DNA of 9,731 nt. Source: a virus. Its lineage: Duplodnaviria; Heunggongvirae; Uroviricota; Caudoviricetes. Under the pieces are notes generated by a model, which was not told where the DNA came from, searched no databases, and saw only the letters and a program-made list of their open reading frames with translations. Positions 298-8,217 of this stretch are shown here, in pieces. The stretch's first letter is position 1. Every line of letters begins with the position of its first letter. Made by a program: the position numbers and the translations under genes. Location: the IMG/VR virus record IMGVR_UViG_2713896772_000022; one strand, given 5' to 3'.

Positions 298-570
298 TCA
301 GACAGGAATTTGCTGACGGTTTGACAGCTTTGACGCGGAGCCATAGCGATTGAGAGTTTGCTGTTGTTTTTCCGGTATTTTTGCTTTGTCTGATTCCTGT
401 TCATTGCACCGAGGCTTCATAATTATCGTATCCACGCTTTCCAGTGCGGTAAATGTGCAGGAACATTCCAGATTCTGGCACTGATACCATGAGCGTTTAA
501 CCGACGGAGCTTCATAGGCGCTGGTTCTGGCGTGAGCGACCGCGCCACATTCAGGACACTTCAGGGCCAT
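298..570 (-). CDS. delta: Ogr/Delta-family zinc-finger late-gene transcriptional activator (90 aa)
   Basis: MALKCPECGAVAHARTSAYEAPSVKRSWYQCQNLECSCTFTALESV closely resembles P2 Ogr as I recall it (MFHCPLCQHAAHARTS...YHQCQNVNCSATF..ESV), with the C-x2-C...C-x4-C zinc motif. ATG at 570 chosen over the track start at 672 because the protein then starts at the conserved motif; GGAG lies ~10 nt upstream; ATG follows the psu stop (TGA 574-572) by one base. Confidence 0.85.
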   Translation of the reverse strand: MALKCPECGAVAHARTSAYEAPSVKRSWYQCQNLECSCTFTALESVDTIIMKPRCNEQESDKAKIPEKQQQTLNRYGSASKLSNRQQIPV

Positions 571-571
571 A

Positions 572-1126
572 TCAGCACACTCCTTTTTCATTAAGTCGGT
601 TAAGGCGGGCCAGGAAAACTTTATGTTGTGCCGGGGTGAAACTGGCTGAAGCATCAGCGCGCATTGATGCATCCACCGTTAATCCGGTTTCGTCGATAAT
701 GCTCTTATATGCTGCTGAAATTACCGGAGTACGCATTTCCGTTTGTCGGGCTACAGCGGTTCGTAATATTTTCATTGCCGCCTCAAGCCCGTATGGAGCG
801 CAAAGAAAAGGAGCCAGAGCGTCAGTGAGTGCATCACCATGCTCGCTCATGAAGTTTTCCGTTGCGCTTGTAACACAACTCTCCAGCACAATCTGATGAG
901 CATAAAGACCATCCCGTGCAGCACAGTTAATCTGCCATTCGAGGACTGCAAGACGCTCACGAAGATCCTCAAGCTGGCTGGCATATGCTGCCGGTTTTTC
1001 TTCAGTATCCAGCAGAGCCGCCAGACGAAGCTGGTAGGTACTTTGCGTATTACGTAGTGTCAGCCAGCTTTTTATCGCCGAGCGGTAATCGTTGAGTGCT
1101 TCCTGAGTAATGGTTCCGGCATTCAT
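572..1126 (-). CDS. psu: Polarity suppression protein Psu (184 aa)
   Basis: Segments FMSEHGDALTDALAPFL and ASFTPAQHKVFLAR match my recollection of P4 Psu (FMQQHGTALAAALAPEL; EKFTPAQNMIFSRK); length close to 190 aa. ATG at 1126-1124 overlaps the upstream stop TGA 1125-1123 (ATGA coupling). Confidence 0.85.
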   Translation of the reverse strand: MNAGTITQEALNDYRSAIKSWLTLRNTQSTYQLRLAALLDTEEKPAAYASQLEDLRERLAVLEWQINCAARDGLYAHQIVLESCVTSATENFMSEHGDALTDALAPFLCAPYGLEAAMKILRTAVARQTEMRTPVISAAYKSIIDETGLTVDASMRADASASFTPAQHKVFLARLNRLNEKGVC

Positions 1127-1875
1127 TTCTTCTCGCCCCCTTTAACCATGTCACGCTGTTTAAGCATCCGTGAACGCGCTGCAGGGCTGGGGGATTGTCT
1201 GGCATCCTGGATGGCTTTATCGTCCGCATAAATGCTGATCCCCGGCAGGGTAATATCATCGGTTGAAGATACGTTACAGGACAGTGCCGGAGTGGTGAGT
1301 TGCTCGCTGATAAATTGCTTCAGCACACTTTCGGGGTCGTTTACGGTATGAACTACACCGATAACAGCAGAAGCGCTTCGGCCCAGAGTCATTTTCAGCA
1401 GTCCAAGGATCTGAATAAGTTTCTGACCGTGTTCCTTCATAAACTCATTCCAGAGCCACACTGCATGAGTTTCAATCAGGCGATTATGTTCGCTGATGTA
1501 GTGGTTTGCAGCATCCGCAGTTTTCCAGGGCAGGAATTCATTTTCTGCCGCCTGAGCTGCCAGCAAATCTTCGAACTCATCCAGTGTTTCGCGTCCGAGG
1601 GCGATTTCTGCCCGCAGTTTTTTCATGCGTGGCGTCATATTTCCCTGATTCTCACGAAACAGGTTTCGCCATTCATCATTAAGCGCCTGCGTTTCCGTTT
1701 TTGTATCTTCCTGACGTTTACGGATAGTTTCAATCATTGCAGCAGCTTCAGTTTGTTTTCGTCGTTCTTCCTGCCAGACAGCTTTTGCTGCCTTAACTTT
1801 ATCCACCGCTTCGCGAATTTTCGGTGGGAGGGAGGGTGTAATGTTTGCATCAGGGATCTGGTTAACAGTAGTCAT
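1123..1875 (-). CDS. sid: Sid-like capsid size determination protein (putative, 250 aa)
   Basis: First gene of the late operon, immediately upstream of and coupled to psu; charged, helix-prone N-terminal half; size close to P4 Sid (244 aa). Track start at 1908 is TTG; the ATG at 1875 has GGAG 7 nt upstream. Assignment is by synteny and composition, not recognised motifs. Confidence 0.55.
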   Translation of the reverse strand: MTTVNQIPDANITPSLPPKIREAVDKVKAAKAVWQEERRKQTEAAAMIETIRKRQEDTKTETQALNDEWRNLFRENQGNMTPRMKKLRAEIALGRETLDEFEDLLAAQAAENEFLPWKTADAANHYISEHNRLIETHAVWLWNEFMKEHGQKLIQILGLLKMTLGRSASAVIGVVHTVNDPESVLKQFISEQLTTPALSCNVSSTDDITLPGISIYADDKAIQDARQSPSPAARSRMLKQRDMVKGGEKK

Positions 1876-2789: not shown

Positions 2790-3050
2790 ATGAATAGTAT
2801 TTCCGTTTCCACCCCGGCACCAGCTGCTCCGGTGCTCCCGGTTCCGGCTCAGCAGGAGCGCTTCATACGATTACCTGAAGTGATGCACCTTTGCGGGCTA
2901 TCCCGTTCAACCATCTACGACCTTATCAGCCGCGATGCCTTCCCGCAGCAGATATCCCTGGGTGGAAAAAATGTGGCCTGGGTACAGTCGGAGGTCAGTG
3001 CATGGATGGCGGCGCGAATTGCTGCCCGCGAGCAAGGAGGCCATGCGTGA
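2790..3050 (+). CDS. AlpA/Vis-family phage transcriptional regulator (86 aa)
   Basis: [47 protein letters not shown] has the AlpA-family helix-turn-helix signature (LSRSTIY...FP..LGGR.V.W...E). ATG at 2790 with GAGAGG ~8 nt upstream; stop TGA 3048-3050. Confidence 0.85.
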
Positions 3051-3115: not shown

Positions 3116-3144
3116 TTTCCCGCTGCCGCAAAATCGGCTGCCGG

Positions 3145-3177
3145 GCGTAGGAACCCGAGTTACTTATTGGCGACACC
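3145..3177 (+). promoter_or_regulatory. seqA-like target sequence (GCGTAGGAAC ... TACTTATTGG)
   Basis: Blocks GTAGGAA and CTTATTGG are exactly complementary to TTCCTAC (3321-3327) and CCAATAAG (3306-3313) downstream; the same two blocks recur at 3352-3392. Confidence 0.4.
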
Positions 3178-3178
3178 A

Positions 3179-3200
3179 GACGCGCCGTGCGTCTTTTTTT
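3179..3200 (+). terminator. Hairpin GACGC-GCCGT-GCGTC followed by T7 (terminator-like; possible immunity terminator or RNA structure)
   Basis: 5-bp GC stem at 3179-3183 / 3189-3193 and a run of seven T at 3194-3200, immediately after the seqA-like element. Confidence 0.4.
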
Positions 3201-3239: not shown

Positions 3240-3340
3240 GCTTATACCTTAGCCCCTTTCAGATAATGGTGGTCCGGGCGGGGCAGCCTTCGGGCTGGCC
3301 GGTTTCCAATAAGGCCGGTATTCCTACCCCCGTTCGGGTC
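3240..3340 (+). ncRNA. Candidate CI-like immunity RNA containing a seqB-like segment (3303-3330); boundaries approximate
   Basis: GC-rich untranslated stretch with several short hairpins (e.g. GCC-TTCG-GGC; CCGG...CCGG) and a segment antisense to both seqA-like and seqC-like. No convincing ORF with a ribosome-binding site. Confidence 0.25.
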
Positions 3341-3351
3341 ACCACCCATGA

Positions 3352-3819: not shown

Positions 3820-4139
3820 AATCACGCACTCTTTCCCTTTCACTTCGGGTAGCGTTGTATCGCCGCGCGGTAGCCTGCGCCTGGTTGAGTGCCTGCTATC
3901 AGCAAAACCGCCATCTGCAGCTCACTCTGGATGAAATTGAAACCGCTATTGCCCGTGAGCTTGAAGGATTTTATCTGCGACAGCACGGGCAAACAAAAGG
4001 CATGGAAATCGCCTGCGCCCTGCTTTCAGACCTGATGGAATACGGCCCTCTAATGTCCTGTCCCGCACTCTCCCAGCTCGGAATAGCCGTAATGGATGAG
4101 TTATGCGTCCGTCACATCAAAAAGCCGGTTTTACACTGA
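3816..4139 (+). CDS. Hypothetical protein (107 aa), immediately upstream of the primase
   Basis: ATG at 3816 with GGAGGTGG upstream; translationally coupled to the previous gene; stop TGA 4137-4139 is 14 nt before the primase ATG. Confidence 0.6.
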
Positions 4140-4153
4140 GGGAGAACTGCGTC

Positions 4154-6487
4154 ATGTCAGGAATGAAAGTCAGTCAGGCCGTGAAGGCTGCCCGCGGTCA
4201 CTGGGCTCAGATTCTGCCAGCGCTGGGCGTGAATATATTGAAAAATCGCCATCAGCCTTGCCCGGTCTGTGGCGGTAAAGATCGTTTTCGCTTCGACGAT
4301 CAGGAAGGACGCGGAACATGGTTCTGCAATCAGTGCGGAGCCGGGGATGGTTTAGCGCTTGTCACCAGGGCACTGAATGTGGATATCAGTGAAGCAGCTG
4401 ACAGGATACATGGACTGACACATGATCTGTCTGTAGTTAATTCCGAGGTCAGGACGTTAACCGCCGATACCGATAGCGGGAAAGATGCAGCGGCAGCACT
4501 TGCCGCGCGACTGCTGCAAGCCTCGCGTGAATCTGCCGGAAACACTTATCTTACACATAAAGGTTTCCCGGAGCATATTTGCCATGAGCTGACTTCAGCT
4601 CATAAGGCCGGTGGTATGATGTTCCGCCCCGGTGATTTGATCGTCCCACTCTATAACGCTGACGGGGAGCTGGTGAATATTCAGCTCATCAGTGGCAATG
4701 GTAGCAAGTGTTTTCTTAAAGGAGGTCAGGTTAAGGAGGCCTATCATCTGATAGAAGGGGGCGGGAGTTCTGTAAGAAGGATTTGGATTGCGGAAGGTTA
4801 CGCCACGGCGCTTACCATTCATTATTTGACAGGAGAAGCCGTCATGGTGGCATTTTCGTCGGTCAACTTTCTTTCTCTGAGCAGCGTTGCCCATAATAAG
4901 TATCCGGGATATCAGTTAATTATTGCAGCGGACCGCGATCTGAATGGTTCAGGCCAGAACAGGGCTGAAACTGCTGCAAAAGCGAGTCAGTGTGACATTG
5001 TGCTGCCACCGGTTTTTGGTGACTGGAATGATGCGCTTACCCAATACGGAGAGGAATCCACCCGGAAGGCAATTCTTGAGGCTTTGAAGCCACATAACGC
5101 CAGTCCTTTCGACACAATGAGTGAAGCAGAATTCACAGCGATGAGTGTCAGCGAAAAAGCTCAGAGGGTTCGGGAGCATTACAGGGATGCACTGGCGGTT
5201 GATCCGAACGGGCAGCTTTTATCCCGCTACGAGTCTGGAGCGTGGAAAGTTATTTCTCAGTCAGATTTTGCCCGAGATGTCGCAGCCCTTTTCCAGCGCC
5301 TCGGGGCACCGTTTTCCTCAGGAAAAATTGCCTCACTGGTGGAAACATTAAAGTTAATTGTTCCGCAGCAGCAAAATCCGTCACGTCATCTGATTGGTTT
5401 TCGTAATGGCGTTCTCGATACGCGAACAGGGCTTTTTAGTCCGCACTGTAAAGAGAACTGGCTGCGTACCCTGTGTGAAGTCGATTTCACGCCACCGGTA
5501 AAGGGGGAAACGCTTGAAACTCATGCCCCGGCATTCTGGCGTTGGCTGGACCGGGCCGCCGGACACAAGCCAGCAAAACGCGACATTATTCTTGCAGCGT
5601 TATTTATGGTGCTGGCGAACCGCTATGACTGGCAGCTCTTTCTGGAAGTGACTGGCCCTGGTGGAAGTGGCAAAAGTATTCTGGCTGAAATTGCGACCAT
5701 GCTTGCTGGAGAGGATAACGCCACCTCTGCGACCATTGAAACGCTGGAGTCCTCGCGAGAACGTGCGGCTCTGATAGGTTTTTCTCTTATTCGCCTGCCT
5801 GATCAGGAGAAGTGGAGCGGCGACGGCGCCGGGCTTAAGGCTATAACTGGTGGCGATGCAGTATCTGTGGACCCCAAATATCAGAATGCTTATTCAACAC
5901 ATATTCCGGCGGTTATCTTGGCCGTAAATAATAATCCTATGCGCTTCACTGATCGCAGTGGTGGTGTGTCCCGCAGGAGAGTTATTCTGCATTTTCCTGA
6001 GCAGATAGCACCGGAAGAACGCGATCCGCAGTTGAAAGATAAAATTGCACGAGAACTGGCTGTGATTGTTCGTCAGCTCATGCAGCGTTTCAGCGATCCG
6101 ATGAGCGCCAGAACATTGCTTCAGTCGCAGCAGAATTCTGATGAGGCTCTCACCATCAAGCGTGATGCTGATCCAGCATTTGATTTTTGTGGCTACCTTG
6201 AGGCATTACCTGACACCAACGGTATGTTTATGGGGAACGCCAATATTGTCCCACGCCAGCCACGTACATACCTTTACCATGCCTACCTCGTATACATGGA
6301 GGCTAATGGCTATAAAAACACCCTGAGTCTTACGATGTTTGGCAAAGGGTTGCCAGTCATGCTGAAGGAGTACGGGCTACATTATGAGAAACGGCGAACT
6401 AATCAGGGAATGCAAACTAACCTCACTTTGAAAGAGGAGAGTAATGCAGACTGGCTGCCCAAGTGTGATGAGCCAATATTAAAATAA
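4154..6487 (+). CDS. alpha: P4 alpha-type bifunctional DNA primase/helicase (777 aa)
   Basis: N-terminal zinc ribbon CPVCGGKDRFRFDD...CNQCG; Toprim-like IAEGYATALT and AADRD; Walker A VTGPGGSGKS of a D5/SF3-type helicase. ATG at 4154 has GAGGGAG 9 nt upstream and gives 777 aa, the length I recall for P4 alpha; the track start at 4103 is an alternative. Confidence 0.92.
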   Translation: MSGMKVSQAVKAARGHWAQILPALGVNILKNRHQPCPVCGGKDRFRFDDQEGRGTWFCNQCGAGDGLALVTRALNVDISEAADRIHGLTHDLSVVNSEVRTLTADTDSGKDAAAALAARLLQASRESAGNTYLTHKGFPEHICHELTSAHKAGGMMFRPGDLIVPLYNADGELVNIQLISGNGSKCFLKGGQVKEAYHLIEGGGSSVRRIWIAEGYATALTIHYLTGEAVMVAFSSVNFLSLSSVAHNKYPGYQLIIAADRDLNGSGQNRAETAAKASQCDIVLPPVFGDWNDALTQYGEESTRKAILEALKPHNASPFDTMSEAEFTAMSVSEKAQRVREHYRDALAVDPNGQLLSRYESGAWKVISQSDFARDVAALFQRLGAPFSSGKIASLVETLKLIVPQQQNPSRHLIGFRNGVLDTRTGLFSPHCKENWLRTLCEVDFTPPVKGETLETHAPAFWRWLDRAAGHKPAKRDIILAALFMVLANRYDWQLFLEVTGPGGSGKSILAEIATMLAGEDNATSATIETLESSRERAALIGFSLIRLPDQEKWSGDGAGLKAITGGDAVSVDPKYQNAYSTHIPAVILAVNNNPMRFTDRSGGVSRRRVILHFPEQIAPEERDPQLKDKIARELAVIVRQLMQRFSDPMSARTLLQSQQNSDEALTIKRDADPAFDFCGYLEALPDTNGMFMGNANIVPRQPRTYLYHAYLVYMEANGYKNTLSLTMFGKGLPVMLKEYGLHYEKRRTNQGMQTNLTLKEESNADWLPKCDEPILK

Positions 6488-6498
6488 CGATTAACTAA

Positions 6499-6523
6499 CC
6501 CGGCTGATGCCGGGCTTCTTATT
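6499..6523 (+). terminator. Rho-independent terminator downstream of the primase
   Basis: Stem CCCGGC (6499-6504) / GCCGGG (6509-6514), loop TGAT, then CTTCTTATT; 12 nt after the primase stop. Confidence 0.5.
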
Positions 6524-6548
6524 GGAAACGCACAAATGTAGAGATAGC

Positions 6549-6575
6549 TGTTCACTCTTCACCTCGCTGTTAACA
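6549..6575 (+). repeat. crr-like iteron cluster: TGTTCAC, TTCACC and the palindrome TGTTAACA
   Basis: Read directly. Further inverted copies at 6610-6617 (GGTGAATA) and 6750-6756 (GTGAACA). The same motif family recurs ~4.4 kb away at 2031-2250. Confidence 0.45.
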
Positions 6576-6837
6576 CGTAAGCAATTGATATATAAGTTAA
6601 AAATGGCAGGGTGAATAGTGTGCATGGTTTTGCGAAAAAAAAGTATTTTTTGTAGAGTCAAGTCCCGGTTTGGATCCGTTTAACGGAACCTAACTAGATT
6701 GACTATTTCTCTGATGATTTTTGGATAAATAATCAACAAAAATCAAAATGTGAACAGAGAATGGTGGGGGCACAAAAAGGGGCATAATTGAATTAATTAT
6801 AATTAAATTTCAATTTTTACAATAGGTTAAATGTGTG

Positions 6838-6859
6838 TGCGAGTCCGGCCTTCGCACCA
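6838..6859 (+). other. att core-like sequence (partial tRNA 3' end ...GAGTCCGGCCTTCGCACCA); putative attR and satellite boundary
   Basis: TGCGAGTCCGGCCTTCGCACCA resembles the T-loop/acceptor 3' end of tRNA-Leu leuX and the P4 attP core as I recall them, with one missing G. No complete tRNA lies upstream (AT-rich), so it is a partial copy. The coding character changes downstream. Confidence 0.5.
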
Positions 6860-7392
6860 AGTTACTAAATTCCTTACAATACAGTTAGTTAGACGATTAA
6901 ATCTGTCTCTTTTGCCTGTAAGAAATGCTCTGTTATGTCCCTTGAAAAAGCCGCTGTGGTTGATAGTGGTAATTGGGATGTTAACTCATAGCGGCGTGTC
7001 GTTCCAAGCGTCAAACACGTACTGACTCAACTTGAAAGCTATGACGTAGCCACCGTCTCTAAACAATCCCAAAACTTTTAGTGCAGCGCATTTTAGCCCG
7101 ATGCCCCCATTCTGTCGCCGTCGCGAGACGCCGCAGGGGATAAACAGGTTTATGGTGGTCACGGTACTTGCAGACCATATGCAAGCTCTGCCAGCGGTTC
7201 GGCCTCGCTCCCCTTGGGTACATGGTCATCCTGATAAGCCTCACTAACTGACATAACCCTGATGAAGTCGCAAGAGGCTCCGCTTGTTGTCTTACCACCA
7301 ACGGGGCTTTATGGATTCTATTGCTTAATATATGATTGTATCAAACTTAGACTGCATAATTTAAACGAACATAACAATCAGGCAGGGGAAGA

Positions 7393-8217
7393 ATGATAAA
7401 GCCATTTTCTGTGAGGTATGGTCATGTTGACGTTAGAGAGCATGTCCAGCTGAATGATCTTAATTCTGATACACGCATGGCATTGTGGAATTGCTTATAT
7501 CTTTTCCTTTGGACTAACAATCGTCAAACTGCTACAGCAACAAAATGTGCGCAGTCTGTGTGGATATATTATCTAAATCAACCTGCGGATAATATTCCTC
7601 GTTATGAAAGTGGATACAAAAGTGATAAGACGTTGCTGACTGCTATCCGAGATTATATATATGGGGAAGCATGGTATTTGGTATATGATTTAATTGAGTT
7701 CATCATTGAGAGAACTAATTCATATATTAATCTATCGAAGCATCTCAATTCCATCTTTAAAAAGCATGGCGTTGGTTATACCATAATAAATGGTTGTATT
7801 ACTCCTATTTCAAATGATAACGAAATTGAAAGTGTTCAGAACGCAGTTGATAATGGCACTGATTCATCGCGTAGCCATTTCGAAAGGGCGTTACAACTAA
7901 TGACGGATAGAGAGCAGCCAGACTACAGAAACTCGATTAAAGAGTCTATCTCTGCAATTGAATCTTTATGCAGGAAAATCACGGGCAATGATAAAGGAAC
8001 CTTGGGGGCTTGTCTTAAAGCTATAGAGGAAAAAGGATATATACACTCTGCAATGAAAGGCGCTTTTAGTCAGCTCTATGGTTATACAAGTGATCAGGGT
8101 GGAATACGTCATGCGCTAACAGAAGAAGATGTAAATCCTACCTTAGCTGAAGCTAAATTTATGTTAGTCACTTGCAGTGCGTTCAGTAATTATCTGTTGT
8201 CAAAAATAAGTGATTAA
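7393..8217 (+). CDS. Hypothetical protein (274 aa), low-GC cargo; function unknown
   Basis: ATG at 7393 with GGGGAAG upstream; long uninterrupted ORF with AT-rich codon usage unlike the satellite core; stop TAA 8215-8217 followed by a strong hairpin. No motif I can assign with confidence. Confidence 0.75.
   Translation: MIKPFSVRYGHVDVREHVQLNDLNSDTRMALWNCLYLFLWTNNRQTATATKCAQSVWIYYLNQPADNIPRYESGYKSDKTLLTAIRDYIYGEAWYLVYDLIEFIIERTNSYINLSKHLNSIFKKHGVGYTIINGCITPISNDNEIESVQNAVDNGTDSSRSHFERALQLMTDREQPDYRNSIKESISAIESLCRKITGNDKGTLGACLKAIEEKGYIHSAMKGAFSQLYGYTSDQGGIRHALTEEDVNPTLAEAKFMLVTCSAFSNYLLSKISD

Follow-up and report, generated by a model that had tools for sequence, protein, structure and literature searches.

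A satellite boundary at leuX with P4-type arm repeats and a core one G short of the tRNA end

Genes and features of the satellite end

The window analysed here is a stretch of 9,731 nucleotides of viral DNA (IMG/VR record IMGVR_UViG_2713896772_000022), which between positions 6400 and 7400 was 99.9% identical to the chromosomes of Escherichia coli O26, O103 and O111. Within this interval the sole difference from E. coli O26:H11 strain 11368 was found at position 6581, outside the attachment core, and window positions correspond to those of the 11368 locus (L001) minus 13601. The P4 core genes that adjoin the attachment site (alpha, crr, orf106, vis, the CI RNA and sid/psu/delta-like genes) were all present (Table 1). 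The deduced alpha protein had 73% amino acid identity to P4 alpha over 772 residues, and the vis and orf106 products were 64% and 68% identical to their P4 counterparts (tblastn). The single crr-like unit contained TGTTCAC/GGTGAA iterons, an A8/T6 tract and a GGTTTGGATCC...GGA.CC palindrome. The matches to the C4 RNA and to isrK were both located inside the region annotated as an Icd-like coding sequence.

Between the sid-position gene and vis, direct repeats rich in TGTTCAC/TATTCAC iterons were observed at 2030-2062 and 2114-2146, spaced 84 bp apart; they probably represent the origin of replication of the satellite, and their iteron is common to the crr-like unit at 6540-6700. The late operon (298-1875, minus strand) comprised the sid-position gene, psu and a short ogr/delta-like gene of 273 nt, the order in P4 being sid-delta-psu, and its Psu was only 28% identical to that of P4. 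In strain 11368 the stretch directly preceding the start of the window is an IS66-family element (ISCro1, L001 10974-13589), which separates the cargo genes from the delta-like gene. A search of the window for the P2/P4 cos 19-mer, with up to 3 mismatches allowed, gave no match. Because of the IS66-family insertion and the lack of a detectable cos 19-mer in the window, the packaging competence of this satellite is doubtful. At the same time, the core, both arm repeats and their spacing are intact in the window copy, and nothing in the attachment site itself argues for immobility.

Table 1. Features of the satellite end and its flank in the window
Feature	Position	Strand	Basis or remark
Vis homologue	2790-3050		
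isrK	3122-3199	+	Rfam, 72 bits, above gathering score
C4 antisense RNA (P4 CI immunity RNA family)	3262-3349	+	Rfam, 83 bits, above gathering score
alpha primase-helicase gene, last before the attachment site	4154-6487	+	as annotated by RefSeq in the O26 locus (99.9% identity)
Terminator-like hairpin downstream of alpha, CCCGGCTGATGCCGGG with a T-rich tail behind it	6499-6514	+	position equals that of the annotated t-alpha terminator of P4
Single crr-like unit	~6540-6700 (approximate boundaries)	+	aligned with both 120-bp crr repeats of P4
Arm-type repeat 1, GTGGGGGCACAA	6764-6775	+	identical to the annotated P4 'attP arm sequence repeat' 4174-4163; kept in 71 unique P4-like arms
Arm-type repeat 2, AAAGGGGCATAA	6776-6787	+	10/12 positions match the P4 arm repeat AAGGGGGCATAT at 4162-4151; kept in the 71 arms
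A+T-rich spacer between arm repeats and core	6788-6840	+	53 nt, equal to the P4 spacer length
Putative IHF-like element, TTACAATAGGTTA	6817-6829	+	conserved CA-N5-TTA; ends 11 nt before the core
att core, GAGTCCGGCCTTCGCACCA	6841-6859	+	19-bp copy of the leuX 3' end, T-loop to CCA, minus one G of G70/G71
Proposed strand-exchange segment, GCACCA	6854-6859	+	marker segregation; sole block common to all four att forms right of the indel
Native leuX-downstream chromosomal DNA, outside the element	6860-7392	+	directly adjoins intact leuX in CFSAN061761 (96.8% identity)

The core is a copy of the leuX 3' end lacking one G

The first-pass annotation of this DNA had recognised the 3' end of a tRNA-Leu at 6841-6859 and had proposed that it is the partial repeat at the integrase-distal end of a tRNA-integrated element. 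The resemblance proved to be real: GAGTCCGGCCTTCGCACCA occurred only once in the window, even when 3 mismatches were allowed, and none of 200 dinucleotide shuffles gave a match. In comparison to the leuX 3' end of the O26:H11 locus L001 (...GAGTCCGGCCTTCGGCACCA), 19 of 20 positions matched, plus one further upstream base (C6840), and the sole difference was one G of the G70/G71 acceptor-stem pair, the discriminator being A73. Thus, the one missing G that had been noted was exactly the difference found. As had also been stated, no complete tRNA precedes the core; ARAGORN detected no tRNA or tmRNA anywhere in the window. A second direct-repeat copy of the core was likewise absent from the window, and the partner lies outside it.

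The same annotation had regarded a palindrome in the A+T-rich tract upstream of the core as a possible IHF or integrase arm-type site. The tract is real, with 81% A+T in the spacer, and its longest perfect palindrome is 14 nt long (TTAATTATAATTAA, 6793-6806), a length that was reached in 1.9% of shuffles of the tract. This makes the palindrome mildly unusual for the composition of the tract, not compelling. Moreover, it was broken in the relatives SCU-105 and 23CRST022 and missing from P4, and we rejected it as a functional site since it is not conserved in relatives that are 2-9% diverged, nor in P4. The true arm-type repeats are located mostly just upstream of the interval that had been marked. 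In the GenBank record of P4 the core is given as 20 bp and the 'attP arm sequence repeats' as 12 bp, and alignment with the P4 attP revealed the same two-repeat arrangement and spacer length in the window (Table 1).

To what extent this layout is maintained was seen from 71 distinct P4-like arms drawn from IMG/VR, GTDB genomes, metagenomes and E. coli. The double arm repeat TGGGGGCAcAAAAgGGGGCA was nearly invariant among them, and in 68 of the 71 the core followed the last GGGCA at a distance of 56 nt. The spacer columns were A+T-rich and varied in sequence; only a CA-N5-TTA element at -21 to -12 was strongly conserved. The P4 counterpart of this element, TATCATTAACTTA, lies at an equal offset and matches the IHF consensus WATCAANNNNTTR at 12 of 13 positions. 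The window copy, TTACAATAGGTTA, is a weak match to the same consensus (7 of 9 specified positions), and it was not picked up when the consensus was scanned at up to 1 mismatch. The only match found in that scan, at 6741-6753, was rejected as a conserved site; it lies upstream of the arm repeats, in columns that are not conserved among the 71 arms. Judging from its conservation, CA-N5-TTA is a putative IHF bend site. Kirby, Trempy and Gottesman are said to have found in 1994 that excision of the related CP4-57 element depends on IHF.

The boundary separates the satellite from native leuX-downstream DNA

leuX and the integrase gene lie outside the window, and their presence was deduced from genomes nearly identical to it. 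In O26:H11 11368 the gene order from the integrase end was ahr, leuX, a tyrosine integrase gene, two cargo genes and the IS66-family element, followed by the ogr/delta-like gene, psu, the sid-position gene, an HTH gene, the Icd-like gene, DUF5375, the alpha primase gene and the core. The tRNA-Leu gene leuX occupies L001 6366-6450, int 6614-7876 and the core 20442-20460, which places the intact leuX and a P4-type int 14.0 kb upstream of the core. The int gene is full length and its product has 95% amino acid identity to P4 Int (tblastn), and the arm repeats on the int side are identical to those of P4 itself. The whole element measures 14.0 kb, of which about 11.3 kb remain when the IS is left out. 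The presence of leuX/attL at the integrase end and of the core at the alpha end means that the prophage order is the one expected from the P4 map. In this genome the full tRNA and the matching repeat at the other end are an intact leuX, with GG.

An unoccupied site fixed the boundary to the base. The last base of leuX in strain CFSAN061761 is L004 4000, and at 4001 begins a homologous sequence with 96.8% identity to the window from 6860 onward; this puts the right boundary of the satellite between 6859 and 6860. The right flank (6860-7392) was found in 630 of 5426 E. coli genomes and the left arm (6488-6859) in 172 of the 5426, and about 108 carried both sides. Moreover, relatives of the left arm (91-98% identity) were joined at the identical point to three different right flanks. 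Each flank thus occurs independently of the other, and the break between them falls at the core. Strain YD786 carries another island at this right flank, not of the P4 type, which is joined to it via a perfect 25-bp leuX repeat with GG (L003 3976-4000); this implies that islands with other integrases at leuX leave an undamaged repeat.

On this evidence, positions 6764-6859 are almost certainly the attR of a P4-like satellite integrated in the tRNA-Leu(CAA) gene leuX, and this attR very probably consists of the alpha-side (P) arm of attP, joined at the core to native DNA from downstream of leuX. The proposal of the first-pass annotation that this is the right end of a satellite is borne out by leuX and the P4-type int at the other end in O26:H11, by the empty leuX site starting at 6860, by the independently assorting flanks and by the P4 arm repeats with identical spacing. 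As such, an attR at leuX is an ordinary and already known kind of feature.

The boundary separates the satellite from an AbiJ-type gene and IS debris, both of which belong to the leuX flank. The AbiJ-NTD4 domain gene (7393-8217, plus strand) is also present in YD786, which lacks the satellite of the window, and therefore it is not satellite cargo. The segment 8867-9731 was an IS3-family sequence (IS911/IS600-like), 95% identical to the IS911 copies in the Shigella phages Sf6 and SfII.

The missing G had been attributed either to decay or to a different target tRNA. For a different target, one whose true 3' end would be ...CTTCGCACCA, nothing speaks beyond the one-base difference itself. However, the attL in the near-identical genome is leuX and the empty site is leuX, there is no tRNA in the window, and with only one G the acceptor stem (5' GCCGAAG) would lack a pair. 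We regard this explanation as next to impossible.

The single G is the normal state of the alpha-side core

The single G was common to O26:H11 11368 and to all four E. coli arm relatives that were fetched, which are up to 9% diverged and are joined to three different right flanks. In IMG/VR the exact 19-mer was present at 37 loci, at 36 of which it follows a P4-type arm that adjoins an alpha gene, and these single-G loci included prophages whose alpha is 98-99% identical to that of P4 and whose arm is identical to the P4 arm. The GG version behind a P4-type arm gave 2 matches in the same database. A loose pattern, GGGGCA...GAGTCCGGCC, returned mostly chance matches and was filtered for the double arm repeat; with the neutral pattern and this filter 35 single-G and 2 GG cores were obtained, plus a few variants. 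When one GTDB genome per species was searched with a pattern open to either state, 26 single-G cores and 1 GG core were found over 27 Enterobacterales species, among them species of Erwinia, Pantoea, Pectobacterium, Photorhabdus, Xenorhabdus and Serratia. In complete E. coli genomes all P4-type arms among the matches listed stopped at the core with one difference, and none of these was 100% identical.

The tRNA side of the element gave the opposite state. Cores linked to a tRNA body had GG in 8 of 8 cases among the fetched loci, six of these being the attL of contigs (L018, L019, L023, L027, L038 and L039) with a single G at attR, and the E. coli leuX genes had GG in 5422 of 5425 cases. In addition, five junctions in which the core lies between the satellite arm and the int arm were recovered from metagenomes with a pattern open to either state, with alpha on the left and a P4-type int on the right (88-100% amino acid identity where matched), and all five had the single G. 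Since one of them lies on a 349-kb contig and several of their int genes are frameshifted, these are probably junctions of chromosomal tandem arrays and not free attP.

When the cores were sorted by their partners, GG was the state with the tRNA body on the left, both with the int arm on the right (attL) and with the host flank on the right (attB), whereas a satellite arm on the left went with a single G, in about 95% of cases when followed by host flank (attR) and in 5/5 when followed by the int arm. Thus, the G/GG state follows the left partner of the core, the arm or the tRNA, and not the right one. A one-base difference between the two direct repeats is therefore systematic in P4-like satellites, and the single G is a conserved hallmark of the family. 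Consequently, automated att-site finders that rely on perfect repeats will mis-delimit P4-like satellites.

These data also bear on decay, that is, a 1-bp deletion that arose in this particular attR after integration and locked the element in place. The IS66-family insertion in the O26 element and the lack of a cos 19-mer in the window, by which the satellite is perhaps otherwise defective, would suit such a history. However, the same deletion is present in 9%-diverged arms with different flanks, in P4-identical prophages and in 26 of 27 species, and apart from the missing G the core is intact, as are both arm repeats. Lineage-specific decay is effectively refuted by the single G across the relatives, the IMG/VR arms and the 27 species, and we consider it very improbable.

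The reference attP of P4 (X05947/X51522), the only sequenced free attP, has GG. The phage collection searched for further free attP yielded only the original P4 records, and there were none among the PLSDB plasmids. An attP-type pattern had no match in IMG/VR and none in the GTDB genomes, and no P4 attP-type junction was found in complete E. coli genomes. vB_KppS-Ant was considered as a source of a free attP and rejected, as it is a capsid-encoding island that is not P4-like.

Several unusual junctions were observed during these searches. Three E. coli genomes (702/18, BS-04 and O111:H21 15A; 3/5425) contained a full-length single-G leuX followed directly by the host flank, with no satellite (L178, L179 and L180, each at 16001-16084; accessions CP074701, CP172819 and CP077477); these are either excision scars or assembly errors. 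In L051 (from 10744), L108 (from 13093) and L112, all from IMG/VR, a P4-like arm keeps GAGTCCGGCCTTCGCAC (...TTCGCAC) and is then followed by unrelated DNA; L051 and L108 represent one junction type and L112 a second. In another IMG/VR locus, L134, unrelated DNA follows the core of a P4-like arm after ...TTCGGCA. The integrase of L108 was only 37% identical to P4 Int. These four junctions may reflect secondary sites or swaps of the integrase module at the core. Finally, at three loci (L008 at 2849-2900, and L131 and L139 from IMG/VR) the attR core ran into a tandem array of 3-4 copies of the 8-mer TTCGCACC, in the layout GAGTCCGGCC(TTCGCACC)n A TCGGAAC... The host flank of these arrays was always the same, and the satellites were of two kinds, P4-type and of the lineage of the window. 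The 8-mer array may have arisen by slippage, or by aberrant recombination within the segment proposed for the crossover.

Origin of the single G and position of the crossover

The missing G is an already published phenomenon, and only the reinterpretation of its source has some novelty. In statements reported through PMC4383910, PMC4048246 and PMC10111431, Williams and colleagues (2002 and 2003) describe the displaced tRNA fragment of islands with P4-family integrases as 'damage'. As worded in passages of PMC4383910 and PMC4048246, damage means that the tRNA fragment of attR has a small deletion, the start of which lies 3 bp upstream of the discriminator, and a P4-like tRNA-Leu island, Kpn11L of Klebsiella pneumoniae BAA-2146, carries the flag 'Damage' in PMC4048246. 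A passage of PMC10111431 proposes that the damage debilitates the tRNA gene on excision, in the manner of an addiction module. The attR of the window agrees with this definition, as one of G70/G71 is missing and the discriminator is A73.

According to this explanation, the crossover takes place upstream, in the T-loop or at the T-acceptor junction, attP carries a perfect leuX 3' end, and the displaced host fragment is damaged on integration, so that excision cripples leuX and penalises loss of the satellite. Besides the published statements (PMC4048246 and PMC10111431), the GG of the P4 reference attP and the single-G leuX without a satellite in 3/5425 E. coli genomes fit this account. However, in 99.9% of E. 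coli genomes the attB of the host has GG, and an exchange of GG with GG cannot yield a single G by known tyrosine-recombinase chemistry. Moreover, precisely this one-G deletion is found in about 95% of independent attR copies over 27 species, and the single-G state tracks the satellite arm over different host flanks. Scars are also extremely rare despite the frequent turnover of these satellites. The junctions of L051, L108 and L112, where GAGTCCGGCCTTCGCAC is kept and unrelated DNA follows, would suit a block that the satellite itself brings along. We therefore consider damage on integration rather unlikely, even with the published statements in its favour.

Our preferred reading is that the satellite itself contributes the single-G core, as part of the P side of attP, and that strand exchange takes place to the right of the indel, inside GCACCA; on the basis of marker segregation we hold this to be moderately probable. 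By classical marker logic, a state that segregates with the left partner places the exchange between the indel and the end of identity, which is within GCACCA, and beyond the CCA the host flanks and int arms share nothing. In addition, had the single G arisen in a host-derived fragment, the satellite could not have taken it along to new hosts, since their attB is GG. The retention of GAGTCCGGCCTTCGCAC ahead of unrelated DNA in L051, L108 and L112 likewise fits a satellite-borne single-G block. A further possibility, an indel inside the overlap that segregates at replication, was rejected, since it would dilute the single G to about 50% and about 95% was observed.

If the single G is satellite-borne, GCACCA would correspond to G71-A76, that is, to the last acceptor pairs, the discriminator and the CCA. 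Integration would then never break leuX: attL would keep the GG of the host and attR the single G of the satellite. The P4-type Int, together with IHF and the Vis homologue, would be expected to synapse attR with attL and bring about excision, and normal excision would restore an intact leuX. Rare exchanges within the left block of 14-15 bp could produce a GG attP along with a single-G leuX scar, and such a GG attP could subsequently give rise to a GG attR. We lean, with some reserve, towards the wider conclusion that the 'damage' is no damage, that these satellites hold a conserved imperfect 19-bp mimic of the tRNA end with exchange confined to GCACCA, and that the GG core of P4 is a minority variant.

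Several observations speak against the satellite-borne reading. The GG of the P4 attP contradicts it, being what a crossover upstream of the indel predicts. The five arm-core-int-arm junctions, being probably tandem, do not strictly exclude damage on integration, and the three single-G leuX genomes look like the excision scars of an upstream crossover, unless they are assembly errors. Finally, the 6 bp of identity to the right of the indel are short for a 7-bp overlap. If the single G is nevertheless borne by the satellite, the crossover of the P4 integrase is mapped to the discriminator-CCA end of the tRNA, and the basis for 'addiction by tRNA damage' is gone, at least for leuX satellites.

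Comparison with known attachment sites

The closest relative of this site is that of bacteriophage P4, whose attP and attR at leuX were reportedly described by Pierson and Kahn in 1987. In P4 (X05947/X51522/NC_001609), as in the satellite of the window, the site lies between alpha/crr and int and consists of two tandem alpha-side arm repeats, a 53-nt spacer and a core that copies the leuX 3' end. The O26 integrase shares 95% identity with P4 Int, and the arm repeats on the int side do not differ between the two elements. The two sites differ in the core, which is 19 bp with one G in the window and 20 bp with GG in P4, and in the sequence of the spacer. In addition, the window has one crr unit, in contrast to the two 120-bp repeats of P4, its alpha is only 73% identical, its late genes are in the order sid-psu-delta and its delta-like gene is short.

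The damaged tDNA fragments of the Kpn11L type are found in the same place, with one acceptor-stem nucleotide lost 3 bp upstream of the discriminator in an integrase-distal tRNA-Leu fragment. Nothing structural distinguishes them from the attR of the window; what differs is the explanation, which here would be a satellite-borne core and a 3'-terminal crossover.

The cryptic P4-like prophage CP4-57 at ssrA (Trempy et al. 1994, as cited in a passage of PMC10111431) shares with the satellite a P4-family integrase, an excision factor of the AlpA/Vis type and integration at the 3' end of a small-RNA gene, and its IHF-dependent excision parallels the excision proposed for the site in the window. It differs in its target gene, ssrA, and in that its excision has been reported to inactivate the target, unlike what the satellite-borne model predicts for leuX.

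Finally, the attP and attR of lambda, the paradigm of heterobivalent tyrosine integrases, are built like the site described here, with arm-type sites, a spacer that is A+T-rich and bent by IHF (putatively so in the window), and core-type sites flanking a short overlap. Lambda is not tRNA-targeted; the attR of the window differs from it further in that its overlap position is deduced rather than mapped, and in having a conserved 1-bp indel between the attP and attB copies of the core.
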